A stretch of DNA of 64,000 bases from Bacteroidota bacterium (GTDB lineage: Bacteria; Bacteroidota; Bacteroidia; Bacteroidales; UBA12077), in NCBI GenBank assembly GCA_020444275.1, contig JAHLLG010000002.1:404266-468265 (forward strand), written 5' to 3'. Made by a program: the position numbers and the translations under genes. How positions within the stretch are numbered: position 1 is the first letter of the stretch; the number at the start of each line of letters is the position of its first letter. This document shows, in pieces, positions 46,616 to 64,000 of this stretch. Under the pieces are notes generated by a model. That model searched no databases. It worked only from the letters and a program-made list of their open reading frames with translations, and was not told where the DNA came from.

Positions 46616-46618
46616 AAC

Positions 46619-49074: not shown

Positions 49075-49803
49075 TTATGTATATAGTCCTCCATTTACAG
49101 ATATTACTTCACCGGTAACGTAAGATGCATTTGGTGAAGCTAAAAATGACACTACATGAGCAACTTCTTCCGCTTTACCGAATCTGCTCATCGGAATTAT
49201 TCGTTTGTAATCTTTCTCCTCCAGTTCCTGTGTCATGTCTGTTTTAATAAATCCCGGGGCAACACAATTTACTGTAACATTTTTCTTGGCAACTTCCTGA
49301 GCTAAAGCTTTACTTGCTGCAATAACTCCTCCCTTAGCAGCAGAATAATTGGTTTGGCCCGGTAAACCTTTAATACCAGATAATGAAACTACATTAACAA
49401 TTCTTCCATATTTGTTAACAATCATATCTTGTACTAAATGTTTTGTAATATAATAAAAACTATCGAGATTTGTATTTAATACATCCTTCCAGTCTTCATC
49501 TTTCATCCACATAATAAGCGCATCTTTTCTAATACCGGCATTATTTACAAGCACCTCGATTACAGCATCCGGATTCTTTTCTTTCCATTGATTAATTGCT
49601 GCTTTTATTCCTTCAGGATCAGAAACATCAAATGGCATTAACTCACCTGAACCTCCGTTTTCTTTTATTTGGTTCAGGGTGTTTTGTGCTTCTTCGATAT
49701 TACTTCTGTAGTTGATTAATACATGGTATCCCAACTTTGATATTTCAAGGCATATAGCCTTGCCAATTCCTCTTGATCCTCCTGTAACTAATGCAAATTT
49801 CAT
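49075..49803 (-). CDS. 3-oxoacyl-ACP reductase (FabG-like SDR)
   Basis: 'VTGGSRGIGKAI', 'NNAGI' and the 'YSAAKGG' catalytic Tyr-x3-Lys. Confidence 0.9.
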   Translation of the reverse strand: MKFALVTGGSRGIGKAICLEISKLGYHVLINYRSNIEEAQNTLNQIKENGGSGELMPFDVSDPEGIKAAINQWKEKNPDAVIEVLVNNAGIRKDALIMWMKDEDWKDVLNTNLDSFYYITKHLVQDMIVNKYGRIVNVVSLSGIKGLPGQTNYSAAKGGVIAASKALAQEVAKKNVTVNCVAPGFIKTDMTQELEEKDYKRIIPMSRFGKAEEVAHVVSFLASPNASYVTGEVISVNGGLYT

Positions 49804-49810
49804 TTTGATA

Positions 49811-51352
49811 TTATTTTAAAATATTTGGCTTATTTTCAACTAAATAGTTGTTAATATTTTCGATATGCTTATATAATGGTTCGTCTTTTGTGATTGTTGG
49901 CACTAATTTTCTTAACTCATGATATACTTCTTTTCCTGTTGCAGATAATCTATCTTTAAATTTCATGTAATCTACTATCTGTAACAGACTTAAAAACTTA
50001 ATGGCTAAAACCTGAAATGAATTCTCGATTACTTTTTTTGTAATTAATGCTGCGTTTGTTCCCATACTTACAATATCCTGGTTATCACCATTATTAGGTA
50101 TACTGTGAACGTACATAGGGTTTGACAACATTTGACTCTCTGCTGTTGTGCTGGTAGCAGTAAATTGAGCAGCTTGTAATCCAAGGTCAAGACCAACAAC
50201 TCCTAAATTTGCAAATGGAGGGAATTTTTCATTAATCTTGTTATTATACAGGTAATTAATTTGTCGTTCAACCAACATGGTAAGCTTAGTAATAACAATT
50301 TTTAACTTATCCATCTCAAGCGAAACATAATCACCATGGAAATTTCCACCATGAAGTACGTCGATGTTTTCATTTTCGATGATCGGATTATCGTTCACTG
50401 AGTTGATTTCATTAATCAAAACTTCTTCCACATGATTAAGTGTTTCGTAAACCGGCCCTAAAACTTGTGGAACACATCGCAGTGAATAATACTCCTGAAC
50501 TTTAACCTTTATAACACCTACACCAATATTATTATCGTAGAATAGATCTGCTCTTTTTTGAATCAAATCACTTGATTCAACAATTTTACGCATTTGCTCT
50601 GCAATAACATTTTGTCCCTTATGAAGTTTTACCTGGTTAAGTTCTTTTGAAAAATGATCATCTACAGACTCAACAACTTCATTGATCATGGTTGATGAAA
50701 TTAATGCCCAGTTTAAAAGATTTTTGGCATGAAGTAGATTAATTAATCCTATACCTGTCATACATGATGTTCCATTGATTAAAGCCAACCCTTCTCTCAA
50801 GTGGATTTGTAATGGTTCAAGGTTATTTGCCTTAAATACTTCTTTTGCAGGACGATACTTTCCATCGTAAAAGATTTCACCTTCTCCAATCAAATTTAGC
50901 GCCAGATGCGCTAATTGCACTAGGTCGCCACTGGCTCCAACTCCACCATGTTCAAAAATCTTTGGATAAATATCTCTGTTAATGAACTCTTTTAGCAAGT
51001 AGATAGCATCAGTATGAACACCGGAATATCCACGCATAAAAGTATTCAACCGTCCAATCATTAATGCTTTTACATAGATGTTTGGCAGAGGATTTCCTGT
51101 ACCCGCAGCATGACTGCGAATAAGGTTGTACTGAAGTAGTTTTTGGTCCTCGTCGCTAATCTTGTATTGAGCCATTGGACCAAAGCATGTATTAATGCCG
51201 TATATTACTTTATCCTTGGAAAAATCTTCTAGAAAATTATAATTCTTTTCAACTTTATGTAATGATTCAGAATCTAAGTCTATTTTTTCTCCTTCATAAA
51301 GTGCTTTGTAAAAATCATTTAGATTGAGATTCTTACCCCCTAATATTATCAT
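49811..51352 (-). CDS. MIO-dependent aromatic amino acid ammonia-lyase (tyrosine ammonia-lyase of the flexirubin type)
   Basis: 'GGVGASGDLVQLAH' (Ala-Ser-Gly MIO triad). Long stretches resemble my recollection of the Flavobacterium johnsoniae TAL ('QYNLIRSH..GTG', 'NGTS.MTGIG', 'QEYYSLRCVPQ.LGP', 'TATSTTAESQMLSNPMYVHSIPNN'). Confidence 0.9.
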   Translation of the reverse strand: MIILGGKNLNLNDFYKALYEGEKIDLDSESLHKVEKNYNFLEDFSKDKVIYGINTCFGPMAQYKISDEDQKLLQYNLIRSHAAGTGNPLPNIYVKALMIGRLNTFMRGYSGVHTDAIYLLKEFINRDIYPKIFEHGGVGASGDLVQLAHLALNLIGEGEIFYDGKYRPAKEVFKANNLEPLQIHLREGLALINGTSCMTGIGLINLLHAKNLLNWALISSTMINEVVESVDDHFSKELNQVKLHKGQNVIAEQMRKIVESSDLIQKRADLFYDNNIGVGVIKVKVQEYYSLRCVPQVLGPVYETLNHVEEVLINEINSVNDNPIIENENIDVLHGGNFHGDYVSLEMDKLKIVITKLTMLVERQINYLYNNKINEKFPPFANLGVVGLDLGLQAAQFTATSTTAESQMLSNPMYVHSIPNNGDNQDIVSMGTNAALITKKVIENSFQVLAIKFLSLLQIVDYMKFKDRLSATGKEVYHELRKLVPTITKDEPLYKHIENINNYLVENKPNILK

Positions 51353-51707
51353 TTCAGTTCTTTGGTTAAGCGTTAAAGTGGTTTAAACCTATAAATTTTT
51401 TATGCTCTTTTTTGTAAAAATGCAAATTTAATAAATACTTTGAATAAACCTTAGTTACTTTTTTGTTTTAATCAACATTTTTATAAATAATCAAAAATCT
51501 ATGATAAATGTAATGTAATGCTCAAAGAACACTTGAGCTGTCATATGAAGGTCCTAAAATCTTAAACAATCAATGTTACGTTTTGTTTACTAAATATTTA
51601 TTTTGGCATAAATTTATTTTGATATAATTTAGTAGGCTTAAATTTTGATTGAATGCTTTGATTATTTGGAACGAAAGCAAAGAGTTATACACTTCAATTT
51701 TGTTATA
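51353..51707. promoter_or_regulatory. Divergent intergenic control region between the APE core operon and the accessory sub-cluster
   Basis: 355-nt AT-rich spacer between divergent gene starts. It contains a GCTCAA-(7 nt)-TTGAGC inverted repeat at 51520-51538, and an HTH gene lies next to it. No promoter was mapped. Confidence 0.3.
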
Positions 51708-52205
51708 ATGAAAGAAAAAGACGCTTATGTCGATTTTGAACCACAGCAACTTATAATGTATGTTGAAAAGGAAGATGGAACCTATGGTCCAATTCAAACT
51801 GGTTCATATATATCAAAAAATTATTTGGATGATTTTTGGGAAAAGACTGTAAGACTTAGAAGCATGTTGCTCGATAAACTTAAAAAGAATGAAATTACAT
51901 CGATATATTTTTATAAATTAATTCACGATTTTAATGATGTTGAACTATCGCGCAGAACAGGAATATCCGTGCGGAGAGTAAAAAAGCATCAGAAAGTGGA
52001 TTGTTTTAAAAGGGCTCGCTTGTCAGATCTCCGGAAATATGCTTATGCGTTTGATATTCCTGTATCTAATTTACTTCAAACGATTGTTGTGGGAGAAGAA
52101 GAGCAAAATCCAGATATAGAAAGTGAAAAGCGTCAAGTAAAAGTAAAGCAATCGAGAACGGAAAATCCATTTTTAGTTATTACCAAAATAGATCTTAATA
52201 CATAA
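51708..52205 (+). CDS. Small HTH-containing protein (XRE-like), paralog of 44404..44805
   Basis: 'DVELSRRTGISVRRVKKHQK...LSDLRKYAYAFDIPVSNLLQ'. I prefer the ATG at 51708 ('MKEKDAYV') by comparison with the paralog; the ORF track starts at 51645. The stop overlaps the next start (TAATG). Confidence 0.55.
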   Translation: MKEKDAYVDFEPQQLIMYVEKEDGTYGPIQTGSYISKNYLDDFWEKTVRLRSMLLDKLKKNEITSIYFYKLIHDFNDVELSRRTGISVRRVKKHQKVDCFKRARLSDLRKYAYAFDIPVSNLLQTIVVGEEEQNPDIESEKRQVKVKQSRTENPFLVITKIDLNT

Positions 52206-53218
52206 TGATAATAGATTCTTTTAAACACAATATGGCGGCTCACTGTGAGTCGGGTACATTAACCGCTTTATTAAAACATAAAGGTTTAGAGATAACCGAA
52301 CCTATGATATTTGGTTTAGGAAGCGGTTTATACTTCGGGTATCTTAGTCATACGCCAAATTTAAGTTTTCCGATGTTTATTTTAAGAACGAAGCCTGGAA
52401 AACTTCGCAAGAAGATTGCAAAAAGAACTGATATAAAATTTAATACTCAGAGGTTTAAAAGCGAAGATAAAGCAGAACAGGAATTAGATGAACTAATAAG
52501 TAAGGGTATTCCTGTAGCTTGTCAGGTGGATTTTTACTACATGGATTATATTCCACAGTGGGAGAGAGTTCATGCTAACATTCACTTTATTACGGTTGTT
52601 GGAAAAGAGGGCGATGAATATCTTGTTAGTGATAGTTATTTTCCAAAATTAGCGCGTATTCACAAAGATAAATTAAGAAAAGCTCGATTTGCAGGAGGCT
52701 ATTTAGCACCAAAAGGTTTTCGATATTTTATTGAATCTGTTCCGGAAACTATTAATTATGAAAAATTAATACCAGTTTCAATAAAAAACACCATTAATAA
52801 TATGATCGGAGTGCAACCTCCTTTTATTGGGGTGCGTGGTATTAGAACTTTTGCAAAAAAATTGCAGGGTTGGCCTAAAATTACACGAGATATTGATCAC
52901 CTTTCACACGAAGTGATGAAAATTAATGTATTTTTGGAAGACCAGGGAACCGGTGGTGGAGGATTTCGATATTTATATGCAACATTCCTTAGACAATGTG
53001 CTGATAAAATATCAAATAAGGAGTTAGAAGAGATGTCGAAAAAGATGATGGAAATCGGCGATGGTTGGCGAAATATTTCTTACTTTGCAGCCAAAATAGG
53101 AAAGAACAGAGATTTAGGAGCTGATAAACTTAAGGAGCTTGGAGATATGATTAACGAAAGAGCTGATGCCGAAGAAGCATTTTATAAGGAGTTGAAAGTA
53201 GTTATAAATAATATTTAA
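52205..53218 (+). CDS. BtrH N-terminal-domain (papain-like fold) protein, DUF4872-type C-terminus
   Basis: 337 aa, with 'AAHCESGTLTALL' and 'HANIHFITVVG'. It is colinear with 43383..44399 along its whole length, including 'GTGG.GFR..YA.FL'. Confidence 0.65.
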   Translation: MIIDSFKHNMAAHCESGTLTALLKHKGLEITEPMIFGLGSGLYFGYLSHTPNLSFPMFILRTKPGKLRKKIAKRTDIKFNTQRFKSEDKAEQELDELISKGIPVACQVDFYYMDYIPQWERVHANIHFITVVGKEGDEYLVSDSYFPKLARIHKDKLRKARFAGGYLAPKGFRYFIESVPETINYEKLIPVSIKNTINNMIGVQPPFIGVRGIRTFAKKLQGWPKITRDIDHLSHEVMKINVFLEDQGTGGGGFRYLYATFLRQCADKISNKELEEMSKKMMEIGDGWRNISYFAAKIGKNRDLGADKLKELGDMINERADAEEAFYKELKVVINNI

Positions 53219-53231
53219 TTTTTCAGATATA

Positions 53232-53507
53232 ATGGGAGAACATAATGGTACAGAGTTGAAGGCGGATATTAAAAAGATGATTATTGAAACATTGAATATG
53301 CAAGATATTACGCCCGAAGATATAGATGATGATTTACCGCTTTTTGGTGGTGATAATACTTTAGGTCTTGATTCTATTGATGCAATTGAGTTGGTAATGT
53401 CTGTTCAGCGCCAGTTCAAAGTACGTATTGATGATCAGAATTTAGCCCGTGAGGTGTTAAAAGATGTAAATTCTATTGCAGAATTTATTCAAAGTAAGGC
53501 TGAGTAA
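53232..53507 (+). CDS. Acyl carrier protein
   Basis: 91 aa, with 'LGLDSIDAIELVMSVQ'. Confidence 0.85.
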   Translation: MGEHNGTELKADIKKMIIETLNMQDITPEDIDDDLPLFGGDNTLGLDSIDAIELVMSVQRQFKVRIDDQNLAREVLKDVNSIAEFIQSKAE

Positions 53508-53545
53508 GTCTTTTTCTTTTATTTAAAATCCGAACCAAACTAATT

Positions 53546-54634
53546 ATGAAAAGTGCTTACCTGATAGCAGGTATGAGACTATCCAGATTCATAAAACTTA
53601 TGATGAAAAATGGAATGTCTGTTCGTCCAAAATTCTTGGTTCGCTTTTTATTTCTTTTCCAGAATGGTATCTGGGCTTCAATTTTTTATCGCAAGGAGAA
53701 ATCAATCTATAAAGATCTTATTAAAAAACACAGATTACCCGATGATCCAATTATTATTGTAGGACATTGGAGAACTGGTAGTACTTTTTTGCACCAACTG
53801 TTAGCTCTTGATCCAAATATTGTAACTTCTAATGTTTTTCAGGGGTCAATACCTGATAGTTTCCTGACTTCCAGAAAGTCGTATGAGCCAATAATGGGCA
53901 GAGCGCTTAAAGGTACTCGCCCAATGGATCAGGTTAAGTTGAGTATGGACGAACCATTGGAAGATGAATATGCCTTATTTCGTTTATGCAGCTATTCACC
54001 ACTCGAAGGAGTTATTTTTCCTAAACAGGACGGATATTTTTTAAATCACTTTCCGGGATTTTTACCTGAAGATGAAAAATTAGAACAATGGAAAAGTGCA
54101 CTTAAATATTTTTATAAAAAATTAACTATAAACAACAACTCAAGAATATTAATTAAAAATCCTTTTCATTCTTTTCGAATTAAAGTTTTAAACGAAATAT
54201 TCCCCAATGCAAAGTATATTCATATCATCAGGCACCCACATAAAGTGGTGCCATCTACTATTCGCATGTGGGATATAGTAGGATCCCAAAATGCAATGAA
54301 TACCAAATGGAGAAAGCCTACAGCTGGCGAGGTAAGTGATGTTTTTAATAAAATGATTCTGCAAATAGAAAAAGATTTTAAAGGTCTTTCTGCAGAAAGG
54401 TATTATGAGTTGAAGTTTGAAGATTTGGAGAAAAATCCAATAAACGAGATAAAGGCAATCTATAAGCATTTAAATGTTCAATTTTCTGATGAATTTGAGC
54501 AACAAATATTACAATTTTTAAATTCGGTAAAAGGGTACAAAAAAAATAAATATACAATTCCGGAATCGGATAAACTGGAAATCAATAACATCCTGAAATC
54601 ATGGATGCAAGCGAAAGATTATAGTTTGGATTAG
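53546..54634 (+). CDS. PAPS-dependent sulfotransferase family protein
   Basis: 5'-PSB loop 'VGHWRTGSTFLHQLL' and a 3'-PB-like 'IIRHPHKVVPST'. 362 aa. Confidence 0.8.
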   Translation: MKSAYLIAGMRLSRFIKLMMKNGMSVRPKFLVRFLFLFQNGIWASIFYRKEKSIYKDLIKKHRLPDDPIIIVGHWRTGSTFLHQLLALDPNIVTSNVFQGSIPDSFLTSRKSYEPIMGRALKGTRPMDQVKLSMDEPLEDEYALFRLCSYSPLEGVIFPKQDGYFLNHFPGFLPEDEKLEQWKSALKYFYKKLTINNNSRILIKNPFHSFRIKVLNEIFPNAKYIHIIRHPHKVVPSTIRMWDIVGSQNAMNTKWRKPTAGEVSDVFNKMILQIEKDFKGLSAERYYELKFEDLEKNPINEIKAIYKHLNVQFSDEFEQQILQFLNSVKGYKKNKYTIPESDKLEINNILKSWMQAKDYSLD

Positions 54635-54686
54635 TTTATTTTTTTGATACTTTTAACCATTAAATTAAGAAGAAAACAAAGAACGT

Positions 54687-55961
54687 ATGAAATTTCAATT
54701 AATATTTCCCAAGTGGAGAAAGCTGGAAGGACAAACAACATTTAATTTACCACCACATGGTGCGATTGTATTTGCATCAACCATTCCTGAAGAGTTTGAA
54801 GTTGAATTTATAGATGAAAATCTTGAGGAAATGAGATTCGATGATGATGTTGATTTTGTGGGAATATCCATGTTGTTAACAACACAAATAAAACGAGGTT
54901 GGGCAATAGCCGACGAGTATAGAAAAAGAGGCAAGAAAGTTATATTTGGTGGTATTGCAACCATGCTGCATGCCGAAGAAACGATGGAACATGCCGATAG
55001 TGTTTTCCTTGGAGAAGCTGAAGGACACATGGATCAGGTTTTCAAAGATTTCAAGAATGGAGAATTGAAGAAATTTTATAATTTCATGAATGATCTTCCG
55101 CCGATTGAAATTGTTGGTCCTGCACGAAGAGAGCTTTACAACAGAGATTTGTATTATCATAAAGGAGTTCAAATGGTTGACTTATTCCATGCTTCGCGTG
55201 GTTGTCGCTATAGTTGTTATCCTTGTGCAGTTTCTTATTTAGGTGGTCGTCAGTTTCGACCAAGACCCATTGATAAATCCATTGAAGAGCTGGAGACAAT
55301 AGATAATAACAGACTATTTATTGTAGATAATTCGCTGGCACAAGATACTCAATGGGAAAAGGATCTGTTTAAGGCAATGATTCCACTTAAGAAAAAATGG
55401 TGTAGTCATACAATTGAAGATAAGCCAGAGGTTCTTGATTTGGCAGCGCAAGCTGGTGCATGGTATGTTTACCAGGCTGTTTTTGATACTTCGGACTATA
55501 TTAAAAATCGTGTAAAACGATATCATGATTACGGAATTGGAGTAGAAGGTACTATTTTATTAGGTCTAGATAACCAAACAGAGGATGATATTAAGCGATT
55601 AATTGATTTCTTACTGGAGATTGATCTTGACCTGGCCGAATTTACAGTATTGGCACCATTCCCACATACTAAAGCCTGGACCGATTTAAGAAAACAAAAC
55701 AGAATTTTCGATTACAACTGGGATAACTACAATGCTGGTCAGGTGGTTTATCACCCAAAACACATGAGTGCTGAGCGTTTACAAGAGTTGTATCAGTATG
55801 CATGGGATACATTCTATAAAGATGAAACGCAGGAAGAAAAGATGTTTAAACTCTTGAAAAAGGTTGTTTCAAGAGAAATGGAAGATGGAACTTTCAGAAA
55901 GCGCCGACAGGATCTTTCAAAATCCAGCTTTGGAAAAAATGTTAAACATAAAATTGCATAA
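54687..55961 (+). CDS. B12-binding-domain radical SAM protein
   Basis: N-terminal B12-binding-like region. CX3CX2C motif 'GCRYSCYPCAV'. 424 aa. Confidence 0.85.
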   Translation: MKFQLIFPKWRKLEGQTTFNLPPHGAIVFASTIPEEFEVEFIDENLEEMRFDDDVDFVGISMLLTTQIKRGWAIADEYRKRGKKVIFGGIATMLHAEETMEHADSVFLGEAEGHMDQVFKDFKNGELKKFYNFMNDLPPIEIVGPARRELYNRDLYYHKGVQMVDLFHASRGCRYSCYPCAVSYLGGRQFRPRPIDKSIEELETIDNNRLFIVDNSLAQDTQWEKDLFKAMIPLKKKWCSHTIEDKPEVLDLAAQAGAWYVYQAVFDTSDYIKNRVKRYHDYGIGVEGTILLGLDNQTEDDIKRLIDFLLEIDLDLAEFTVLAPFPHTKAWTDLRKQNRIFDYNWDNYNAGQVVYHPKHMSAERLQELYQYAWDTFYKDETQEEKMFKLLKKVVSREMEDGTFRKRRQDLSKSSFGKNVKHKIA

Positions 55962-55975
55962 TTGTTGATTGTACG

Positions 55976-56353
55976 ATGGAAACAAAAACAAGTAAATATC
56001 AGGATCAATTGTATCATTTTAAGGGATTATGGGATCTTCCATCAGTTTGTGGGTTGAAAATTGTAAAAAAAGCTGATCAAGCAATTATCATTGCTACTGA
56101 TTTGTTTGATGAAAACCCCGGAACTTCTATTACGGAATGGAATACAAAGTTAGCGAAAGAGCTGTGCGATAATCATGATATAAATTACCAGGATTTAATT
56201 TATATTGAGCATACCCCAAATAAGGATACCAAGTTATCGTTTAACAGAGAAACATTTTATAAAGTTAATTTTGATATTAGCGACAATGGATTTGATAATC
56301 CACAGTGGGAGGAGTTAACAAAAAGTGAAGTAGATAAATTATTAACAGAATAA
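55976..56353 (+). CDS. Hypothetical protein
   Basis: 125-aa ORF, tightly packed in the operon. No motif recognised. Confidence 0.5.
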   Translation: METKTSKYQDQLYHFKGLWDLPSVCGLKIVKKADQAIIIATDLFDENPGTSITEWNTKLAKELCDNHDINYQDLIYIEHTPNKDTKLSFNRETFYKVNFDISDNGFDNPQWEELTKSEVDKLLTE

Positions 56354-56363
56354 ACAAAATATA

Positions 56364-56666
56364 ATGGCTAAAATTACTGATAACACAAGAAATGAGGTTA
56401 AAGAAATCGTTCTGGATTTTTTTGCAGAGGAGTGTGAGGTTGATGCAGAAGAGATATCAGAAGATGCAAATATTATTAGTGATCTGGATGGTGATTCTTT
56501 AATGTTTCTTGAGCTTATTGAAATATTTAAAAAGAAATATAATTTAAATATAGAATTAAAAACAATTGGTAAATATGCGGTTAAGCATCCGGTAAAAACT
56601 ATTGGAGAGCTTATCGATATGCAAATGCTTATCATTGAGCACGAAAATAATATTTTGGATTTGTAA
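56364..56666 (+). CDS. Acyl carrier protein (divergent)
   Basis: 100 aa, with 'SDLDGDSLMFLELIEIF' as an ACP-like DSL motif. Confidence 0.75.
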   Translation: MAKITDNTRNEVKEIVLDFFAEECEVDAEEISEDANIISDLDGDSLMFLELIEIFKKKYNLNIELKTIGKYAVKHPVKTIGELIDMQMLIIEHENNILDL

Positions 56667-56681
56667 GATACTATTCAGTGG

Positions 56682-57050
56682 ATGATATTAAGTTGTGGTA
56701 TTGATATTGAAGAGATAGAACGATTTAATAAGCACTACTTTCACAAAGGAAAGTTGTCTGATTTAATGTACGATATTTTTACTACTAAGGAGATAGATAA
56801 TTTGTCTGTTTTCGGTAAAGAAGCCTTTTTAAAAGGCTTTTGTTTTAAGGAGGCATTCTATAAGGCCATAAATAATACAAATGTAGGTTTCTTGGATATT
56901 CAGATTATTTTTAGCAGTGAAAAAAGTTTTGAAATTTTAAAGTCGAAAGAACTTGATAATATCTTAAATAGTTTGGCCATAAAAGAGATTCAGGTAGAAT
57001 TTCAAACAGAGAAACAATACATCATTTCAAAGGTTTTATTAGTACACTAA
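56682..57050 (+). CDS. AcpS-type 4'-phosphopantetheinyl transferase
   Basis: 'CGIDIEEIERF', 'FTTKE' and 'CFKEAFYKAI'. Both AcpS Mg-ligand positions (Asp, Glu) are conserved. Confidence 0.75.
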   Translation: MILSCGIDIEEIERFNKHYFHKGKLSDLMYDIFTTKEIDNLSVFGKEAFLKGFCFKEAFYKAINNTNVGFLDIQIIFSSEKSFEILKSKELDNILNSLAIKEIQVEFQTEKQYIISKVLLVH

Positions 57051-57940
57051 TGAAAAAGAAAGCATATATTTTCCCTGCATTTATTACTGAATTTACAGGT
57101 AAAGAAATATCTTTTCTTGAAGATCATAACATTGATATCAATACGTATCTGTCCAATATTTCCGAATCTTTAGCTATTGAATTACCAACTTTTTCTTATG
57201 AGCACGAATTTTATAAAGAAGAGCTAAATTCTCAATTAATTGCTTACTCGTTTAGCTGTGCTTTTTCCGATATTTTAAAATCTAAACAGATTATTCCTGA
57301 TTATATCGCCGGATACAGTATGGGAATTTATGCTTCACTTTATGCTTCTGGCAGCATCGATTTTATTCAGGGAGCTCAAATAATATTTAAAGCATATAAT
57401 CTGGTTAAAGCTCTTTCTGACGAAGGATTACACGGTATGGGAGCAGTTGTTGGGTTAACGTATTCAGAATTAAATGAGTTAATCTTAAAACATAATTATG
57501 CTCTGGAGATAATAAACACCAACAACGAGCACTCGTTAGTTCTAGCCGGAAAGAAGAACGATCTTAAAGAACTTTTAACCATAGCTAAAGATTTAGGTGC
57601 ATTATCTGCAGGAGATTTAACCGTAAATACACCATATCATTCCAGATTTTTAAAGCAGTTTGCTGCTCCATTCAGGTGCTTTTTAGATCAGTTGAATATT
57701 TCTGATAGTAAACTGCCTCTAATATCCACGTATGATCAAAAGCTTGTGTTCAAAGTTTCGGATGTAAAGTTGGAGTTAGTAATTAACTTAACGGAATCTA
57801 TTAACTGGGGAAGAACCATGCTTAAATTAATTGATCTTGGAGTGGAAGAGATGTACGAATGTGGAGCAGGTAAGGATTTAAAAAAGATATCGCGTTTTAT
57901 TCATGGTAATTACAAAATCAAATCGGTATATAATATATAA
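57050..57940 (+). CDS. FabD-like acyl-CoA:ACP transacylase, non-canonical specificity residues
   Basis: It aligns to E. coli FabD: 'AGYSMGIYASL' (Ser nucleophile kept, GHSLG becomes GYSMG), 'TPYHSRFL' (His kept) and 'YECGAGK'. 'GQGSQ' is replaced by 'AFITEF', and the Arg of 'EMRGKFM' is replaced in 'IFKAYNLV'. Confidence 0.75.
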   Translation: MKKKAYIFPAFITEFTGKEISFLEDHNIDINTYLSNISESLAIELPTFSYEHEFYKEELNSQLIAYSFSCAFSDILKSKQIIPDYIAGYSMGIYASLYASGSIDFIQGAQIIFKAYNLVKALSDEGLHGMGAVVGLTYSELNELILKHNYALEIINTNNEHSLVLAGKKNDLKELLTIAKDLGALSAGDLTVNTPYHSRFLKQFAAPFRCFLDQLNISDSKLPLISTYDQKLVFKVSDVKLELVINLTESINWGRTMLKLIDLGVEEMYECGAGKDLKKISRFIHGNYKIKSVYNI

Positions 57941-57944
57941 AAAA

Positions 57945-57965
57945 GGAACCTAATTTTGAGGTTCC
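57945..57965. terminator. Bidirectional rho-independent terminator
   Basis: GGAACC-(9 nt)-GGTTCC hairpin, flanked by AAAA upstream and TTTTTTGTTT downstream, between convergent genes. Confidence 0.7.
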
Positions 57966-57989
57966 TTTTTTGTTTAAAATAGTTAATTC

Positions 57990-58604
57990 CTATTTAAAAG
58001 CTTTTTTTACTAAATAAGCACCGAATTCTTTTCCACCTTTTGCATAGGCTTCTGAAATTCTGTAACCAGTATCATAATCATTACCCATAGCGTCGCGTCC
58101 GGGAACTTTTTCCATGGTCATTACGGCTAAAACATTATCACGGTTTTCTGTTTCAGCAAATACAATTTCAAGGTCAATCATTGCATCTTTTCTCATAACG
58201 CCAACATTAAATCCTGGTTCTGTAAACGTAACTTTTACAACCGCAACATATTTTGCATTAATATTGGTTTGATCAATATTGCAATTGGCTTTTGCTAAGT
58301 ATTTATTAGCAAGTTCTTCGAATTTAGGATGGAAACGTCCTTCTCTGTCTGCAACCCAGCTTTCTGCCCATTCATCACCTTTGCCAGGCTCTTTTTCGTT
58401 GTACTCAGCTACTTTTTTGGCTACATAGTCTTCTTCTCTCTCAAATTTGCCAACAGCCATATTACTGTAATCATATTCCACCAATAATTCCGTTTGGCCT
58501 TTCAGGAAATCTAAGTCGCCACGTACAACTTTGATTTTTTGTGCTTGAACATTTGTTGCAACAACTACAATTAGTGCAACTAAAACAGTTTTTAAAATTT
58601 TCAT
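57990..58604 (-). CDS. Hypothetical secreted protein
   Basis: 204 aa with signal peptide 'MKILKTVLVALIVVVATNVQAQ'. No recognisable motif. Confidence 0.55.
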   Translation of the reverse strand: MKILKTVLVALIVVVATNVQAQKIKVVRGDLDFLKGQTELLVEYDYSNMAVGKFEREEDYVAKKVAEYNEKEPGKGDEWAESWVADREGRFHPKFEELANKYLAKANCNIDQTNINAKYVAVVKVTFTEPGFNVGVMRKDAMIDLEIVFAETENRDNVLAVMTMEKVPGRDAMGNDYDTGYRISEAYAKGGKEFGAYLVKKAFK

Positions 58605-58641: not shown

Positions 58642-58818
58642 TTATATAAAAATTGCTAGGGTGCCATGAACCATCGCTGTTATGAATAAAGTAATGCCCA
58701 AACGTCGGTGTAAAGTAAATTTTACTTTAATGATGCGTAGTCCACTTAAAAGTTGAAATAATGCCAGAATAAAATTGATTATTCCTAACCATAAGATGAT
58801 ATTAATTCCAAAAATCAT
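58642..58818 (-). CDS. Small (58-aa) two-TM membrane protein, not in the supplied ORF track
   Basis: My manual translation is MIFGINIILWLGIINFILALFQLLSGLRIIKVKFTLHRRLGITLFITAMVHGTLAIFI*. It has two hydrophobic helices, each followed by or containing a His. It starts 11 nt after the stop of the upstream SOR-like gene. Confidence 0.45.
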   Translation of the reverse strand: MIFGINIILWLGIINFILALFQLLSGLRIIKVKFTLHRRLGITLFITAMVHGTLAIFI

Positions 58819-58829
58819 ATGTTTATGTT

Positions 58830-59207
58830 TTATTTTATTTCAATTTTGACCGAATCAAGGCCTTTAGAACCATGCAGGTTACAATTCCCTTTTGCTTCTA
58901 TGGTTGTTGGGGCGTCAATTTTTAAGGTAAACTCAAGTGTGAAGTTTTCTTCCTCAGGTTTGCTAAAACCACCATATTCCCACTTTTTATATTCTTTGTC
59001 ATTTACTTTTACCCAAACCCAGTTGGTATGATGCAAAAAGTTATTACCACTATGAGTTACTTCAATTTTAATAGTTACTTCAGATCCTTTTTCAACTTTT
59101 TCTGGGGCATCTATTTTTACTGAAGTTTCATTTGCTAGCGAATGAAGAGAGAAAATTAGAATCAATAATAATGAGATTGTACTTGCTTGTAATAATTTCT
59201 TTTTCAT
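58830..59207 (-). CDS. Exported desulfoferrodoxin/neelaredoxin (superoxide reductase)-like domain protein
   Basis: 125 aa with a signal peptide. 'EVTHSGNNFLHHTNWVWVKV' and 'GNCNLHGSKG' parallel the SOR 'H-x6-HH(I/Y)..I' and 'CN.HG' Fe-ligand motifs. 'PEKVEKG' sits where SOR has 'EKHVP'. Confidence 0.6.
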   Translation of the reverse strand: MKKKLLQASTISLLLILIFSLHSLANETSVKIDAPEKVEKGSEVTIKIEVTHSGNNFLHHTNWVWVKVNDKEYKKWEYGGFSKPEEENFTLEFTLKIDAPTTIEAKGNCNLHGSKGLDSVKIEIK

Positions 59208-59243
59208 AATATTTTAGTTTGAATTTGAATTATTGGTCAAGTA

Positions 59244-59621
59244 TTATTCTACACTAACAGTAAATTTATCTTCTCCTTTAGATCCATGTTTGTTGCAATT
59301 ACCTTCTGCAACTATTTCGAGGTTAGCATTGGCAATTATTTTATATTCTAAAGTGAAGTTTTGGTCGTCAGGCAGGTTGTCTTTTGAATATTCCCATCGC
59401 TTAACTTCTTCGCCGTTAACTTTCAACGAAACCCAGTCGGTGTAGTGTCCTTTTGTATTTCCAATATGTTTAACTTCAATTTTAACAGTTACTTCTGTCC
59501 CTTTTTTTACTTTTTCCGGAGCAACAATTGTTACAGATGTTTTATTGGCAAAAACTCCTGAAGAGATTAGCAGAAGAGCCATTAATGCAAAAATACCTAA
59601 TAAAGTGTTTTTTCTTTTCAT
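59244..59621 (-). CDS. Exported desulfoferrodoxin/neelaredoxin-like domain protein (tandem paralog)
   Basis: 125 aa with a signal peptide. Motifs 'EVKHIGNTKGHYTDWVSLKV', 'GNCNKHGSKG' and 'PEKVKKG'. Confidence 0.6.
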   Translation of the reverse strand: MKRKNTLLGIFALMALLLISSGVFANKTSVTIVAPEKVKKGTEVTVKIEVKHIGNTKGHYTDWVSLKVNGEEVKRWEYSKDNLPDDQNFTLEYKIIANANLEIVAEGNCNKHGSKGEDKFTVSVE

Positions 59622-59740: not shown

Positions 59741-61081
59741 TTAAATTACATCTGTACCTTTCTTTATTAACCATAGCTTACCAACATTTTCATAAAATTT
59801 TTCCAGAGGTAACTTGGTTTTAAGAACACTATTGAAAAAGTTATATTTTGTGAGATCAAAATCAATAATTTGCTCTTTTACTTCATCATAGAAAGGTGTA
59901 CCAGGCATTGGTGTTAAAATGGTATATCCGGCATACGTTACTTTGTGAGAGCTGGTATATTCAGATAAGGCTTTAAAGTCAGATTCATCGTAATCATTAG
60001 GTATTACATAATTACCTCTTAGCATGATGTCATTTTTATGAAAAATATCAATAGCTTCATGTATTAACCTAGCTTCGGCACTTTTGTTATATCTTTTCAA
60101 CTCTTCTTCTCTAAACGATTCAAAACCACAGATCACTACTTTTAAACCATTCCTTGCTAGTTTTTCAATTAATTTTGGATGTTTAACAGCCGTATCTGTT
60201 CTAATGTCCATGATATAGGTTTTCTTAATACCTTCCTGTTCTATTCTATCAAACAGATAATCAATAACCTTTTCGTTAACAATGGTATTGGCATCGGCAA
60301 AACGAACAATGTTATAGTCAATCTGCTTTAACTCGGTGATTATACTTTCCACATCACGCTGCAAATATTTTCCATGATACTGGCACCAAATAGAGCAAAA
60401 AGTACATTTGTATGGACAACCCAATGAAGTAAACAAATAAGTTGATGGTTCATTTGCATTTCCTACAATATAGCTGTCCCGCCAGGGCTCAACTAATTTT
60501 CGGTTCGGCATCAAAAAATCTTCTTTGGCCGAGTTAAAATCATATCTCCTTAGTTTCGTTTTTTTTAGCTCACCATTATGATTGATGATGATTCCCGGAA
60601 TATGATCAAATGTCTTATTTTTTTCTTTAGCTTGTATAACTTCTCTGAAAATGTGCGCTGATTGTCCTGGAAGAACAAGGTCTACCGATGGATCTGAAAA
60701 ATCGGTGGGAGATGAGGTAGCATGTAGTCCGCCGGCTACAGTTAAAATTTGAGGATTGAACGATTTTACAGTTTTAAAAATTTCTATGGCGTAATCAAAT
60801 TCTGAAGCAATGGTAGTTGTTCCAACAACATCGGGTTGATGTTCATTTAATAATTTAAGTACTAACTCTTGTAATGGTGGAGTAGTTTCCGGGTACAAAT
60901 CATACTGACCTTTAGTTTCAAAAAAAACTACATCATAATCTTTAACTGCTTCGGCAACGGTTAATAGTCCTAATGGCGGACCAATTAATTTTTTATGAAT
61001 ATATTTTTTGGCTTCTGCAGGTGCAGATTCAAGAATCATATTATGAGGTGAACGCGGTGTATTAATTAATAGAATTTTCAT
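59741..61081 (-). CDS. B12-binding-domain radical SAM protein
   Basis: N-terminal B12-binding-like region ('MKILLINTP...'). CX3CX2C motif 'GCPYKCTFCSIW'. 446 aa. Confidence 0.85.
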   Translation of the reverse strand: MKILLINTPRSPHNMILESAPAEAKKYIHKKLIGPPLGLLTVAEAVKDYDVVFFETKGQYDLYPETTPPLQELVLKLLNEHQPDVVGTTTIASEFDYAIEIFKTVKSFNPQILTVAGGLHATSSPTDFSDPSVDLVLPGQSAHIFREVIQAKEKNKTFDHIPGIIINHNGELKKTKLRRYDFNSAKEDFLMPNRKLVEPWRDSYIVGNANEPSTYLFTSLGCPYKCTFCSIWCQYHGKYLQRDVESIITELKQIDYNIVRFADANTIVNEKVIDYLFDRIEQEGIKKTYIMDIRTDTAVKHPKLIEKLARNGLKVVICGFESFREEELKRYNKSAEARLIHEAIDIFHKNDIMLRGNYVIPNDYDESDFKALSEYTSSHKVTYAGYTILTPMPGTPFYDEVKEQIIDFDLTKYNFFNSVLKTKLPLEKFYENVGKLWLIKKGTDVI

Positions 61082-61159: not shown

Positions 61160-63514
61160 TTAAAATTGTATTCTGTAGCTTGCCATAGGATACAATGCCA
61201 TTTCGTAATTATGATAAATTTTACCTGTTAATGGATCAATTCTTTGTTCGTAAACACTGGTATAGTTTGTTCGATACTGGAGATCCATAGCAATTTCAAC
61301 GTTGAATTTTGGCTTATTTCTACGTATCCCCAATCGTAAGTTAACTCTAAAATAATCTTCTTGTCTGTGTTCATACGCATGGTCCCAATCTAAAACTTCT
61401 TCGCGTTGAGCAATAGTTGCTTCCACATCGTATGGTACATAAGGGCGCCCACCTGCATATGTGGTCTTCAGACCTATAATAAAAGCGTTGGTTTTGCGCA
61501 GTGGTATTTCATAACCACCAAGCACATTAATAGCAAAATTACCATTAAATGCTGTATTCCTTTCCTTACCATCATATCCTCTATAAGTTGATTCGTAGAG
61601 TGATGTTGTAAGTAAGAAGTAGAAATTATCTTCAAAAAATCGCTCTAATGTGAGCTCGATACCATAGTTTTCACCAGTTCCATCATTGGTTAAGCTATCC
61701 ACTCGTTCGATAAAATATTCTGCGCCAAAATTAAGTACCGAATATTCCGGTTGACTGGGTTTTACAGGAATATCGTAAAGGTACTGATAGTACGTTTCGA
61801 ACTTTAATCTGAGATTATCGCTAAACAGATGATCATATCCAATAACAAACTGGTGACTCTTTGTTAAATCAAGATTTTTATTGGTATATACATAAGATCC
61901 ATCGTCCAATTTTGTTTGTGTAAAATAGATTACGCGCAGTTGCGCCTGACTGTGCAATCCATAACCCATTTTAAATGAGTTTCTGGAATTTATAGTCCAG
62001 TTAAAACCTAAGCGTGGTTCGATGGAATAAGTGTCGTTTAAATCTAAATACTGAAAGTTAATTCCGGAATAGAGATCAATGTAATTTGTAAATTTGTGTT
62101 TAAACTGCGCATATGCCTGAAACATATCAAACTGTTCATTTCTTACGTCAGTATCAACTTGAAAAACGCCATTGTTAATGGTGCTATCTTCAAAACTTAC
62201 AAAATAACGATCTACCTTTATACCGTAATTCAGAATGTTTTTATTATTAAGCTTGGTATTTATATGTGATGTCAGACTAGCTTTTACTTCAGATGATTTT
62301 TCACCTGCCCAGTTACCAATTAGCTCAGGATCGAGATAGAATGTGTCAATTTGTGTTGTAACAGCTGATCCATAAAGTGATACTGCGGTTTGCATACGTG
62401 TTTTTGTTCCAAAGAAATGAACATATGACAGAGCCAATGAACCTATGTCAGAACCATTACTGAGATCTTCTCCCCAGTCATCAAATGACCATTCACTTTG
62501 ATCATCATTAGAATCAAACATTTCAATATAGCTTTTCCCGCCCAAACCAACCAGGCTTAATCTTCCTTTTTTCATTGGAAAATTAAGTTTAACGGTTAAG
62601 TCCTGGTATTTTGTAGTTTCCACTTCGGCACCCAAAAGATCAATAATGTCAACCATCGAATATCGATAGGAAATTAAATATGATGCATTGGAATTTTTAG
62701 AGAAAGGTCCTTCGGTTCCAAATTCTAAACCATTATAACCAAATTCCAACCAGTGTTCTCTTTTTTCGTTATTTCCGGTGCGCATTTTCATATCAAAAAC
62801 ACCTGCTAAAGCATTACCATATTCAGCAGGAAATGCTCCGGTAAAGAAATCTGAATTGCTTAACAAATTATTATTCAAAATAGTTATTGGTCCTCCTGTG
62901 GTCCCCGATGCAGCAAAATGATTCGGATTCGGAATTTCAATACCATCTAATCGCCATAGTAATCCTGTGGATGAATTACCACGAATAATAATATCATTTC
63001 TGTTATCGCGTACCGACATAACTCCTGCATAGTTTGCAGCCATGCGTGCCGGATCATCATAACTTCCGGGGTATCTGCTCGTTTCTTCAACGGTAAATGA
63101 CCGGGCACTTACAGTTGCCATTTTATTGATAGGTTTGTCTTTTTGAACGGTAGCTTTTATAACAACTTCATCGAGCTCGGTAACTGATTCTTCTAATTCT
63201 ATTTTAAGGATTTTTTCTTTAGCTGAGCTAATGGTAATATTGTCAAGAGCTTGTGTTTTGTAACCTACGTAGCTGGCTTGAATAGTTTGCCTGCCCACAG
63301 GAACATTATCAAAACGAAAGGTTCCATTCTCATCACTTATGGTACCTTGTTGCGGACTTGTATTTGGCAAAATGATATTCACCCCGGAAAGTGGTATCTG
63401 AGTTTCTCTGTCTACTACAACACCTCGTAATGTTTGTGTAAGTATTTTTTGTGCAAAACCAGATAAAACAGGTATGCTAACTAAACAGATAAGCAACAAA
63501 AGTTTTTGCTTCAT
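61160..63514 (-). CDS. TonB-dependent receptor with N-terminal carboxypeptidase-regulatory-like domain
   Basis: 784 aa. Signal peptide, then 'LRGVVVDRETQIPLSGVNIILPN...GTFRFDNVPVG' (CarboxypepD_reg). The plug region has 'IIIRGNSSTGLLWRLDGIEI'. The beta-barrel ends in 'SYRIQF'. Confidence 0.9.
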   Translation of the reverse strand: MKQKLLLLICLVSIPVLSGFAQKILTQTLRGVVVDRETQIPLSGVNIILPNTSPQQGTISDENGTFRFDNVPVGRQTIQASYVGYKTQALDNITISSAKEKILKIELEESVTELDEVVIKATVQKDKPINKMATVSARSFTVEETSRYPGSYDDPARMAANYAGVMSVRDNRNDIIIRGNSSTGLLWRLDGIEIPNPNHFAASGTTGGPITILNNNLLSNSDFFTGAFPAEYGNALAGVFDMKMRTGNNEKREHWLEFGYNGLEFGTEGPFSKNSNASYLISYRYSMVDIIDLLGAEVETTKYQDLTVKLNFPMKKGRLSLVGLGGKSYIEMFDSNDDQSEWSFDDWGEDLSNGSDIGSLALSYVHFFGTKTRMQTAVSLYGSAVTTQIDTFYLDPELIGNWAGEKSSEVKASLTSHINTKLNNKNILNYGIKVDRYFVSFEDSTINNGVFQVDTDVRNEQFDMFQAYAQFKHKFTNYIDLYSGINFQYLDLNDTYSIEPRLGFNWTINSRNSFKMGYGLHSQAQLRVIYFTQTKLDDGSYVYTNKNLDLTKSHQFVIGYDHLFSDNLRLKFETYYQYLYDIPVKPSQPEYSVLNFGAEYFIERVDSLTNDGTGENYGIELTLERFFEDNFYFLLTTSLYESTYRGYDGKERNTAFNGNFAINVLGGYEIPLRKTNAFIIGLKTTYAGGRPYVPYDVEATIAQREEVLDWDHAYEHRQEDYFRVNLRLGIRRNKPKFNVEIAMDLQYRTNYTSVYEQRIDPLTGKIYHNYEMALYPMASYRIQF

Positions 63515-63560: not shown

Positions 63561-64000
63561 TTATTGATTTGTTTTGATAGAAAATCCTGCCTGTTCCAGA
63601 ATATTTCCCAGCTGAACATATTTTCCATGCGAATAGGCCATGAGTTCGTTGTGTTGCATATTAATCGTATTATTCGTATCGATATAATCTTCAGCAACCT
63701 GGATATTAACCACTTCAGCCAAAAACATATCATGTGATCCCAACTCTTTTATTTCTGTTACTTTACATTCAATATTGATAGGCGATTCTTTAATAACAGG
63801 CGCGCTAACTTCTTTTCCTTTTTCCGGGGTTAAATTCATCTCTTTGAATTTATTATAGTCACGTCCTGATCTGCGTCCGCAAAAATCGGCTGCTCTAACC
63901 AAATCTTTGGTAGAATAATTAATAACAAACTCTTTGTTTCGTTCGATAATTGCATGTGAGTGCCTGTCTTTCCGAATAGAAACATAACACATTGGTGGTA
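63561..64000 (-). CDS. Flavin reductase-like (FMN-binding split-barrel) protein, 5' end beyond window
   Basis: The reading frame stays open to the window edge ('..PPMCYVSIRKDRHSH..'). 'FVINYSTKDL' and 'SPINIECKV' fit the flavin reductase domain pattern. Confidence 0.65.
   Translation of the reverse strand, partial: PPMCYVSIRKDRHSHAIIERNKEFVINYSTKDLVRAADFCGRRSGRDYNKFKEMNLTPEKGKEVSAPVIKESPINIECKVTEIKELGSHDMFLAEVVNIQVAEDYIDTNNTINMQHNELMAYSHGKYVQLGNILEQAGFSIKTNQ

Follow-up and report, generated by a model that had tools for sequence, protein, structure and literature searches.

Tandem genes for exported superoxide reductase-like proteins with an altered ligand set and their small membrane partner with a putative bis-haem signature

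Against superoxide, anaerobes are defended mainly by superoxide reductases (SORs). Since superoxide cannot pass through membranes, it is poorly understood how the periplasm is protected in strict anaerobes. A locus in a Bacteroidota genome raises the question whether a SOR fold may operate outside the cytoplasm with fewer ligands than the known enzymes possess, and with which partner. The locus lies in a stretch of 64,000 nucleotides (GenBank assembly GCA_020444275.1, contig JAHLLG010000002.1, positions 404,266 to 468,265), referred to as the window, and comprises two adjacent genes, designated SORL-A and SORL-B (SOR-like). From the sequence alone they had originally been predicted to encode signal peptide-bearing proteins of the neelaredoxin fold with an incomplete set of metal ligands. 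According to the analyses described here, they specify paralogues with predicted Sec export that belong to a distinct clade of SOR centre II domains, in which the first His ligand is lost and three His and the Cys are kept. The solved SOR structures matched by the family all contain a His4Cys iron site and have no signal peptide.

Membership in the SOR domain family was clear for both proteins. The Desulfoferrodoxin profile PF01880, for which the gathering score is 22.2 bits, was matched with 34.8 bits by SORL-A and 35.2 bits by SORL-B (E ~2e-8). The profile search that had been suggested as a check, with the lack of a significant match as the refuting outcome, was thus passed by both proteins. 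Sequences identical to them are named 'class II SORL domain-containing protein' by NCBI. An AlphaFold2 (AF2) model of SORL-A, based on 24 homologues, reached a mean predicted local distance difference test score (pLDDT) of 89.7 and consists of an N-terminal helix followed by seven β-strands forming a β-sandwich. Foldseek searches of the PDB with this model detected the SOR of Ignicoccus hospitalis (4bk8/4brj; template modelling score, TM, 0.63; root-mean-square deviation 2.3-2.4 Å; E ~5e-6) as well as Thermotoga TM0658, and by model and matches SORL-A possesses the seven-stranded Ig-like β-sandwich characteristic of SOR. The neelaredoxin fold assigned originally is therefore supported by profile and structure matches alike. 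Periplasmic β-sandwich proteins of the SoxZ/SoxY type were ranked level with SOR in the same search (2oxh, 2ox5; query TM up to 0.67).

SORL-A and SORL-B are 48% identical across 124 residues (BLASTP E 2e-40) and their genes are separated by 36 bp. Tandem duplication was considered as a trait of the family and rejected, as two copies were found only in the window among 84 loci. The duplication also occurs in L095 and L096, both close relatives, and only one copy, of the A type, is found in L092. An antisense open reading frame (ORF) of 70 codons overlaps each SORL gene, and similar ones are seen in 32 related loci; most simply, these are a by-product of conservation on the sense strand and provide no evidence of a gene.

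The position of the missing ligand differs from that proposed originally. In the first prediction, the sequences EKVEK of SORL-A and EKVKK of SORL-B were equated with the canonical EKHVP motif, with Val in place of the first His and the Glu-Lys pair retained. Three independent alignments were available for mapping, obtained with phmmer, by comparison of the family profile with PDB sequences, and by MAFFT together with two canonical SORs, those of I. hospitalis and the Dx-SOR of locus L037 (Desulfobacterium sp. N47). In all of them the canonical E-K-H aligns with N26-E27-T28 in SORL-A and with N26-K27-T28 in SORL-B, and the segment APEKV is placed on APEKV. The segments APEKVEKG (SORL-A) and APEKVKKG (SORL-B) are distinct from E-K-H and have an equivalent in I. 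hospitalis SOR, which holds both motifs one after the other (…A-E-T-H-T-P-K-I-E-A-P-E-K-V-K…). Since both motifs occur in this protein and the three alignments agree, EKVEK and EKVKK are not the counterpart of EKHVP. It follows that the first His is replaced by Thr28 in both proteins, the Glu by Asn, and that the Lys is present only in SORL-B, which shows the family consensus Asn-Lys, SORL-A having Asn-Glu instead. Neither protein thus has the Glu-Lys that precedes the first His of SOR, where Glu is the sixth ligand of the ferric form and Lys serves in substrate steering. The motif also varies among characterised SORs, as I. hospitalis has E-T-H.

For the remaining ligands the original assignment largely stood. 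H52, H59, C109 and H112 are present in both proteins, so that the [Fe(His)4(Cys)] set is complete except for the first His. The Cys/His pair occurs as CNLHG in SORL-A and CNKHG in SORL-B, in register with canonical SORs, as had been proposed. The pair formed by H52 and H59 (THSGNNFLHH and KHIGNTKGHY) had also been recognised correctly, but not that its spacing, H-x6-H, exceeds by one residue the H-x5-H of the two canonical SORs compared. By hhalign, 'VTHSGNNFLHH…CNLHGS' is paired with 'VAHPM-EEKHY…CNLHGL' of the canonical Dx-SOR. From the strand order, the mature N-terminus, the 52-59 loop and the 109-112 loop should be located at one pole of the sandwich, and the in-register alignment to solved SORs together with the strand topology suggests that the His and Cys side chains cluster there. 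The earlier description as a variant metal centre with unknown chemistry is still fair.

The signal peptides also proposed at the outset were readily recognised. Both N-termini show a Sec layout with a basic n-region (MKKK in SORL-A, MKRK in SORL-B), a hydrophobic core and an A-x-A-type end (HSLA|N or GVFA|N), and Ala is found at position 25, the -1 position of the predicted cleavage site, in 255 of 261 aligned family domains. In the AF2 model of SORL-A, the signal region forms a helix (residues 2-21) of lower confidence. An RR motif is not contained in the N-terminus of SORL-A (MKKKLLQ…) or SORL-B (MKRKNTLL…), and anchoring as lipoproteins was ruled out for both, as neither signal peptide contains a Cys. 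The predicted mature proteins begin with N26-E27-T28 (SORL-A) and N26-K27-T28 (SORL-B). The position of the lost His is accordingly only two residues from the mature N-terminus, a point missed in the original prediction. Among 184 family proteins, 171 have Sec-like and about six Tat-like signals. Twin-arginine-type signals (MNRRSFLSYG…) were seen in SORL of two related loci, L034 and L035 (Desulfosudis oleivorans / Desulfobacterium sp. metagenome-assembled genomes, MAGs; ~9940..10375).

The altered ligand set is a property of the whole family. A profile search over 1.84 billion representative proteins (50%-identity representatives) revealed 245 SORL relatives at E <=1e-3 and 37 at E <=1e-30, and 113 homologues of SORL-B were obtained at 90%-identity clustering. 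H52, H59, C109, H112 and G113 are invariant in 24 homologues. In 289 aligned family domains, gaps included, Ala was counted 255 times at position 25. Position 26, the mature N-terminus, is Asn in 208 and Asp in 36 (~93% Asn/Asp), and position 27, corresponding to the canonical Lys, is Lys in 181. At position 28, where the canonical His is lost, Thr (141), Ser (50), Pro (41) and Ala (26) were found, and never His. The loop His residues are present in 264 (position 52) and 269 (position 59) domains, Cys109 in 234, His112 in 226, and Gly113 in 236. The family consensus following the cleavage site, N-K-T-S-V, overlies the canonical E-K-H-x-P, and the N-terminal Asn/Asp is the sole strictly conserved residue of this segment. 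The core of the original prediction, one of four His ligands lost with three His and the Cys kept, is therefore true family-wide.

To describe the distribution of these genes, 185,579 species, each represented by one genome, were scanned with a pattern, and 163 stretches were confirmed. The best 80 of the 163 served as species loci; 27 are from Bacteroidales and 53 from Desulfobacterales/Thermodesulfobacteriota, Leptospirales/Spirochaetota and a few others. Nearly all of the 80 are MAGs, and the hosts belong to lineages of anaerobes. One contig labelled 'Thiohalospira sp.' (L007) encodes a protein 70% identical to SORL-A next to Bacteroidales-type genes for the membrane and 204-residue proteins described below. 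Because of these genes and homologues of the lipid cluster genes also described below, for example the ammonia-lyase gene, it looks like a Bacteroidales contig misbinned in a gammaproteobacterial MAG. A remote clade (P0231, P0242, P0248, P0268, P0269 and similar) has a mature N-terminus 'A|N-V-P' and the motifs HLNPxxxHYIDW and AHCxxHG (3His+Cys). After these come Cys-rich modules in several repeats (…CxMSLCDCQCYPxGQTPEE…CGINCLG…NATGC…), linkers rich in Pro and Thr, and a membrane anchor at the C-terminus. The NCBIfam model NF033506, 'PACE-CTERM putative S-layer protein', to which SORL-A has a weak match (E 9.5e-6), may correspond to this clade; that its members are archaeal surface proteins is a guess.

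With which partner could an exported SOR-like protein act? Directly downstream of SORL-A, starting 11 bp past its stop codon, a gene for a protein of 58 residues with two transmembrane helices (2-TM) is located, which had been missed in the original prediction. In 69 of 84 loci, including Bacteroidales, Desulfobacterota, Spirochaetota and others, the SORL gene is directly followed by a homologue in the same orientation; some of the remaining 15 end at a contig edge. Conversely, look-up from 2-TM proteins revealed a PF01880 gene immediately upstream in three of three cases. In two natural fusions, P0153 (216 residues) and P0168 (295 residues), SORL is joined by a linker to the hairpin, which was recognised by its hidden Markov model with E 5e-20 and 1e-20, respectively. 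The AF2 model of the 2-TM partner is a hairpin of helices 2-26 and 34-57 (pLDDT 93). Five Lys/Arg residues are found in the loop between the helices and none at the termini; by the positive-inside rule, both termini are thus expected in the periplasm. The fusions confirm this topology of the N-terminus and the functional link between SORL and 2-TM proteins. Two further arrangements were noticed. P0174 (109 residues), in which the first hairpin helix is joined directly to the second half of the SORL domain, is probably an assembly or deletion artefact, and P0273 (289 residues) combines a SORL-like domain with a larger membrane domain of several helices, which contains His and is not matched by Pfam.

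The 2-TM family comprises about 930 clusters at 90% identity, and the named examples among the top matches listed are all 'hypothetical' without a precomputed Pfam domain. In alignments, G12, N15, Q22, G26, H37, G41 and H51 are invariant, and both H-x13-H and G-x2-N-x6-Q-x3-G are present in 120 of the 120 top homologues. H37 and H51 reside on helix 2, and their distance agrees with that of haem-ligating His residues in bis-haem proteins, about 13-14 residues apart on one helix. The Ferric_reduct profile PF01794 was weakly matched over the His-bearing helix by 26 of 31 members (best E 2.6e-4), and a few members weakly match other haem b membrane families (Sdh_cyt, DUF4405, cytochrome b561, Ni_hydr_CYTB). 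Foldseek searches of the PDB with the 58-residue hairpin gave three matches, each with E >=6, and comparison of its profile with PDB sequences gave chance-level matches only. In the two loci with twin-arginine-type signals, L034 and L035, the 2-TM gene is absent after SORL and a membrane sensor-like gene is found in its place; judging from these two related loci, Tat export and loss of the partner may be linked.

Starting from the established domain membership, the ligand pattern with its family-wide conservation, the pairing of SORL and 2-TM genes and their fusions, a mechanism can be proposed. Two 2-TM hairpins would form a four-helix bundle, which could bind, through bis-His ligation, a haem b close to each face of the membrane, in the manner of transmembrane helices 3 and 5 (TM3 and TM5) of the ferric-reductase/NOX domain. 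Through this bundle, a cytoplasmic or quinol donor would supply the exported 3His/Cys centre with electrons. By homology the centre would most probably contain iron, and in the periplasm of these anaerobes its substrate for reduction would be superoxide or some related small oxidant. The vacated equatorial position may be open or may be filled by the conserved N-terminal Asn/Asp, through its α-amine or its side chain. The full chain, from a dimeric di-haem b conduit to an exported 3His/Cys centre scavenging a periplasmic oxidant, is tentative, held with slightly less than even confidence. Far more confidence is placed in the weaker claim that SORL is an exported metal-binding redox protein working with a membrane partner. 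A more specific version, in which the pair would be a minimal transmembrane redox machine not described before, appears doubtful: the hairpin of 58 residues would, as a homodimer, be the smallest cytochrome b with two haems, in essence a single haem helix of the ferric-reductase/NOX type with a helix packed against it, and would connect reductant in the cytoplasm to SORL, and the SORL site would be completed on signal cleavage, the N-terminal Asn/Asp replacing the lost His (His3-Cys-N(terminal)), to give a periplasmic superoxide reductase or scavenger. Such completion by the N-terminus resembles the logic of nickel superoxide dismutase (NiSOD) maturation or of histidine-brace proteins.

Several results weigh against the proposed conduit and its SOR chemistry. 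Because one ligand is gone, the His-His loop is longer and SORL-A is without the catalytic-type Lys, canonical SOR chemistry is not assured, and the NCBIfam model TIGR00332 (neela_ferrous; cutoff 61.9) was missed by SORL-A with 26.0 and SORL-B with 20.9 bits. Because of Sec export, the metal would be acquired outside the cytoplasm, and extracytoplasmic metallation favours Cu or Zn over Fe at His/Cys sites. On the side of the partner, the gathering score of PF01794 was not reached by any of the 31 members (16.0 bits vs 28 for the window protein), and with two helices it does not show the six-helix layout that the superfamily of ferric reductase domains (FRD) has, with His pairs on TM3 and TM5; its dimerisation is assumed. 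About 11 untruncated loci have no 2-TM gene, including L034, L035 and some Bacteroidales. Finally, conservation across the 53 non-Bacteroidales loci does not go beyond the SORL and 2-TM genes, the flanking genes being diverse and mostly unrelated, and a neighbourhood of genes for defence against reactive oxygen species (ROS) is limited to few, partly related genomes.

One of these neighbourhoods is nevertheless informative. In L037 (2322..11447), genes for rubrerythrin, a canonical Dx-SOR, a rubredoxin-like protein, flavodoxin, cytochrome bd I and II, flavin mononucleotide (FMN) reductase, a flavodiiron protein, a HEAT-repeat protein, SORL, 2-TM and peroxiredoxin follow each other. This stretch is a classical O2/ROS-defence island of an anaerobe, and the presence of a canonical cytoplasmic Dx-SOR together with an exported 3-His SORL suggests a division of labour between compartments. 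The gene of the HEAT-repeat protein (9297..9983 in L037) is found directly upstream of SORL in four related loci. Markers of O2/ROS defence were detected near the pair in L037, L039, L046, L050 and L054, some of which are related. A universal link of the pair to such genes was rejected, since five of the 53 non-Bacteroidales loci and no Bacteroidales locus have these markers. Some Desulfobacteraceae do have the pair in such an island, and the association, striking in Desulfobacterium sp. N47 and its relatives, counts as support without being decisive. In L087 the pair is flanked by genes for a Fur-family regulator and rubrerythrin.

The identity of the metal is where another explanation deserves attention. 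The 3His/Cys site could bind copper or another non-iron metal, and SORL would then be a cupredoxin-like periplasmic electron carrier or a metal handler wired to the hairpin. Sec-type export in 171 of 184 family proteins, implying folding and metallation outside the cytoplasm, would fit this explanation. The same is true for the ligand set, His3Cys with a C-x2-H loop, since there is a resemblance to the loops of blue-copper proteins and to the copper site, 3His+Met, of P19/FetP proteins, which are β-sandwiches. A canonical Fe ligand is lost and the His-His loop is remodelled, and the conserved Asn/Asp of the mature N-terminus could contribute its α-amine, a common Cu(II) ligand. However, the nearest relatives by sequence and fold are iron SORs with the identical C-N-x-H-G motif, no copper-homeostasis genes were present among the neighbour genes examined, and the hosts are anaerobes of sediments and sulfidic settings, as inferred for their habitats, where Cu is scarce. 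A few members with Tat signals would fit loading of the cofactor in the cytoplasm, and the informative context of L037 is an Fe-based O2/ROS defence. Copper or another non-iron metal in the centre is therefore considered unlikely.

In the window the two SORL genes and the 2-TM gene are part of a longer run on the minus strand, which starts with genes for a flavin reductase-like protein, a TonB-dependent-receptor-like protein and a B12-binding radical SAM protein and ends with a gene for a protein of 204 residues (Table 1). Only 8 bp separate the start of the flavin reductase-like ORF from the window end, and the ORF matches the profile from position 38 of 153 onwards; the gene may therefore continue past the window. 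For the 204-residue protein no Pfam or NCBIfam match was obtained. Its gene follows the pair in 20-21 of the 27 Bacteroidales loci and in none of the 53 others; in L011 and L013 it is located directly after SORL, with no 2-TM gene between. The B12-binding radical SAM gene is a neighbour in 27 of 27 Bacteroidales loci and in two or three of the 53 others, and it is thus outside the conserved two-gene module. Genes for the receptor-like and flavin reductase-like proteins are neighbours in Bacteroidales only (0 of 53 other loci). By analogy to Fre and MsrQ, the flavin reductase-like protein might act as cytoplasmic electron donor to the hairpin, which is speculative. A hairpin immediately after the gene for the 204-residue protein, recognised by a consensus scan, probably marks the end of the transcription unit. 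Beyond it lies a cluster whose gene content is of the flexirubin/aryl-polyene lipid type. Its core includes a tyrosine/aromatic amino-acid ammonia-lyase, four ketosynthase-type genes, a ketoreductase, acyl carrier proteins (ACPs), ACP synthase (ACPS), a malonyl-type acyltransferase, a 4HBT thioesterase, a LipA-type acyltransferase, an ABC-2 exporter and a polysaccharide deacetylase. Less usual for such a cluster are two more B12-binding radical SAM genes, a sulfotransferase gene and two genes for BtrH_N/DUF4872 proteins (Table 1). Neighbours of the pair in run and cluster are syntenic in 20 to 27 of the 27 Bacteroidales loci.

Table 1. Features of the window referred to in the text
Feature	Position	Strand	Remarks
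Flavin reductase-like gene	63561..63992	minus	PF01613; head of run; homologue in 14/27 Bacteroidales loci
TonB-dependent-receptor-like gene	61160..63514	minus	outer membrane; CarboxypepD_reg domain; marginal Plug match (23.5 vs 23.9 bits)
B12-binding radical SAM gene	59741..61081	minus	PF02310 and PF04055; upstream neighbour
SORL-B	59244..59621	minus	125 residues; exported SOR-like protein (predicted); ORF and PF01880 match
SORL-B, predicted Sec signal peptide	59547..59621	minus	residues 1-25, MKRKNTLLGIFALMALLLISSGVFA, cut before N26; read from sequence
SORL-B, candidate ligands	H52 59466-59468; H59 59445-59447; C109 59295-59297; H112 59286-59288	minus	codons checked
SORL-A	58830..59207	minus	125 residues; exported SOR-like paralogue (predicted); ORF and PF01880 match
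SORL-A, predicted Sec signal peptide	59133..59207	minus	residues 1-25, MKKKLLQASTISLLLILIFSLHSLA, cut before N26; read from sequence
SORL-A, candidate ligands	H52 59052-59054; H59 59031-59033; C109 58881-58883; H112 58872-58874	minus	codons checked
Antisense ORF over SORL-B	59233..59445	plus	70 codons
Antisense ORF over SORL-A	58819..59031	plus	70 codons
2-TM partner	58642..58818	minus	58 residues, two helices
2-TM partner, H37	58708-58710	minus	helix 2; H-x13-H with H51
2-TM partner, H51	58666-58668	minus	helix 2; H-x13-H with H37
Gene for 204-residue secreted protein	57990..58604	minus	signal peptide; last gene of run
Terminator-like hairpin	57939..57971	minus	13-bp stem and T run
Flexirubin/aryl-polyene-type lipid gene cluster	35547..57940		abuts the SORL run
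Ammonia-lyase gene of the cluster	49811..51352		tyrosine/aromatic amino acid type
B12-binding radical SAM genes of the cluster	45257..46615; 54687..55961		additional genes
Sulfotransferase gene of the cluster	53546..54634		additional gene
BtrH_N/DUF4872 protein genes of the cluster	43383..44399; 52205..53218		additional genes

These neighbours bear on two further explanations. In the first, the pair would function in iron acquisition or as a reductase of ferric iron or another metal, the hairpin reducing a metal on the exported β-sandwich before uptake. The sole family resemblance of the partner is indeed to a ferric-reductase transmembrane component, the Bacteroidales operon begins with the TonB-dependent-receptor-like and flavin reductase genes, and a Fur-family regulator gene adjoins the pair in L087. 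Yet no permease or ABC importer is conserved beside the pair, the 53 non-Bacteroidales loci keep just the two genes, and the receptor and flavin reductase genes are specific to one lineage. Fur-family regulators beside rubrerythrin in anaerobes are typically PerR-type peroxide regulators, and the invariant buried Cys/His site suggests a cofactor over transient cargo. A role in metal reduction or iron uptake is therefore regarded as quite improbable.

The second explanation is prompted by the region from 35.5 to 58 kb, which is occupied by the lipid cluster. The pair would serve as its accessory, either protecting the pigment or acting as a tailoring oxidoreductase outside the cytoplasm. ACP, ACPS, acyltransferase and B12-binding radical SAM neighbours are syntenic in 22 to 27 of the 27 Bacteroidales loci, and in two differently arranged loci, L004 (Desulfosalsimonadaceae) and L006, the pair is contained inside ACP/ketosynthase/LolA clusters. 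A universal link was rejected, however, after examination of the 80 species loci by tblastn, phmmer and neighbour clustering, since it holds only in Bacteroidales and two or three other loci, and because of this limitation the explanation was demoted to a rival. Within 8 kb of the pair in the 53 non-Bacteroidales loci, ketoreductase homologues were found in four, B12-binding radical SAM homologues in two or three, and other cluster homologues in none, while synteny inside one order can be plain inheritance. Moreover, the SORL operon is convergent to the last genes of the cluster with the terminator-like hairpin between them, and ACP-bound chemistry is cytoplasmic but SORL is exported. There is consequently little to recommend a function within lipid synthesis.

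That SORL is non-catalytic, either a degenerate SOR relic or a carrier or structural Ig-like domain like SoxY/SoxZ with vestigial His and Cys residues, is hardly credible, because the points in its favour, namely the level Foldseek ranking of SoxZ/SoxY, a weak SoxY Pfam match of SORL-A (E 0.002), the lost canonical ligand and multi-domain cell-surface proteins as remote relatives, are opposed by the near invariance, across phyla and down to ~35% identity, of the Cys, the three His and the neighbouring Asn and Gly, which is unexpected for a relic, by the lack of the C-terminal GGCGG motif of SoxY, and by the dedicated His-bearing membrane partner and the fusions, which argue for a redox function.

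The SORL clade is thus a widely conserved and uncharacterised group that combines an exported SOR fold and an altered ligand set with a dedicated, unannotated mini-membrane protein bearing a bis-haem signature. If the proposed conduit to an oxidant-scavenging SORL centre proves true, it would represent a new class of extracytoplasmic oxidant-scavenging systems, a new coordination variant of the SOR centre, and a very small natural transmembrane electron wire, which would be of interest to protein design. Should the centre contain copper or be non-catalytic, caution would be called for in automated 'superoxide reductase' annotation in metagenomes.

Among known systems, the closest are 1Fe-SOR/neelaredoxin (I. 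hospitalis 4BK8, Pyrococcus furiosus SOR) and centre II of 2Fe-SOR, which share PF01880, the β-sandwich and the C-N-x-H-G loop with SORL. Both loop His residues, the Asn of the loop and the 'APEKV' strand occur in I. hospitalis SOR as well. Canonical SOR has the first equatorial His in E-K-H, whereas the SORL clade has Thr, Ser, Pro or Ala in [N/D]-[K/E]-[T/S], and the His-His spacing of SORL is one residue longer. The N-terminal arm that precedes E-K-H in canonical SOR is wholly replaced by the predicted cleavable signal peptide. Moreover, canonical SOR is cytoplasmic and uses soluble donors of the rubredoxin type, whereas SORL is predicted to be exported and is paired with a membrane protein.

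Neither a Sec-exported 3-His SOR-like family nor its hairpin partner was found in the literature, most subscription journals being outside the search; only TAT-SORs are mentioned. This class, defined in SORGOdb and exemplified by Geobacter metallireducens Gmet_2613, possesses a twin-arginine signal and active site II (PMC3116461), and for the 'periplasmic SOR' of Sulfurimonas pluma scavenging of periplasmic superoxide was proposed (PMC10066037). TAT-SOR and SORL have a SOR domain and predicted export in common. Going by the class description, SORL-A and SORL-B are set apart by a Sec signal without RR and by one missing His; because there is no twin-arginine signal and site II is incomplete, they are not assigned to the TAT-SOR class.

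SoxY and SoxZ are periplasmic Ig-like β-sandwich proteins as SORL is predicted to be. However, SoxY has a C-terminal GGCGG arm, whereas the SORL proteins end in …VKIEIK (SORL-A) and …FTVSVE (SORL-B), and the invariant Cys of SORL sits in a SOR-type C-N-x-H-G loop, unlike that of SoxY. The SoxY profile PF13501 (threshold 28.4) was matched below threshold with 18.7 bits, and by SORL-A only.

For the pair as a whole, MsrPQ of Escherichia coli offers a likeness of logic only, an FRD-type haem membrane protein beside an exported redox enzyme that receives its electrons from this protein through the membrane, as a defence against oxidative damage (PMC11031084). MsrP is a molybdoenzyme repairing Met-sulfoxide, whereas SORL has the SOR fold. 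Against the six helices and the flavin site of MsrQ, the 2-TM partner is a 58-residue hairpin that would need dimerisation, and there is no sequence homology between them past the weak match at the His-bearing helix. The FRD superfamily is characterised by six transmembrane helices, of which TM3 and TM5 carry the His pairs that serve as ligands of an inner and an outer haem, an arrangement through which MsrQ passes electrons to periplasmic MsrP; in SpNOX, H69 and H82 of TM3 together with His residues of TM5 bind two haems with irons 21.5 Å apart (PMC11031084). Like members of this superfamily (NOX, STEAP, FRE, MsrQ), the 2-TM partner carries on one helix two His at a distance of about 13-14 residues, the first of them at the cytoplasmic end and within the sequence H-[R/K]-x-x-G. 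In FRD proteins both His-bearing helices belong to one chain, whereas the 2-TM partner would need the second from another subunit. The His spacing in the 2-TM partner fits the haem-haem distance of ~21 Å in SpNOX (PMC11031084).

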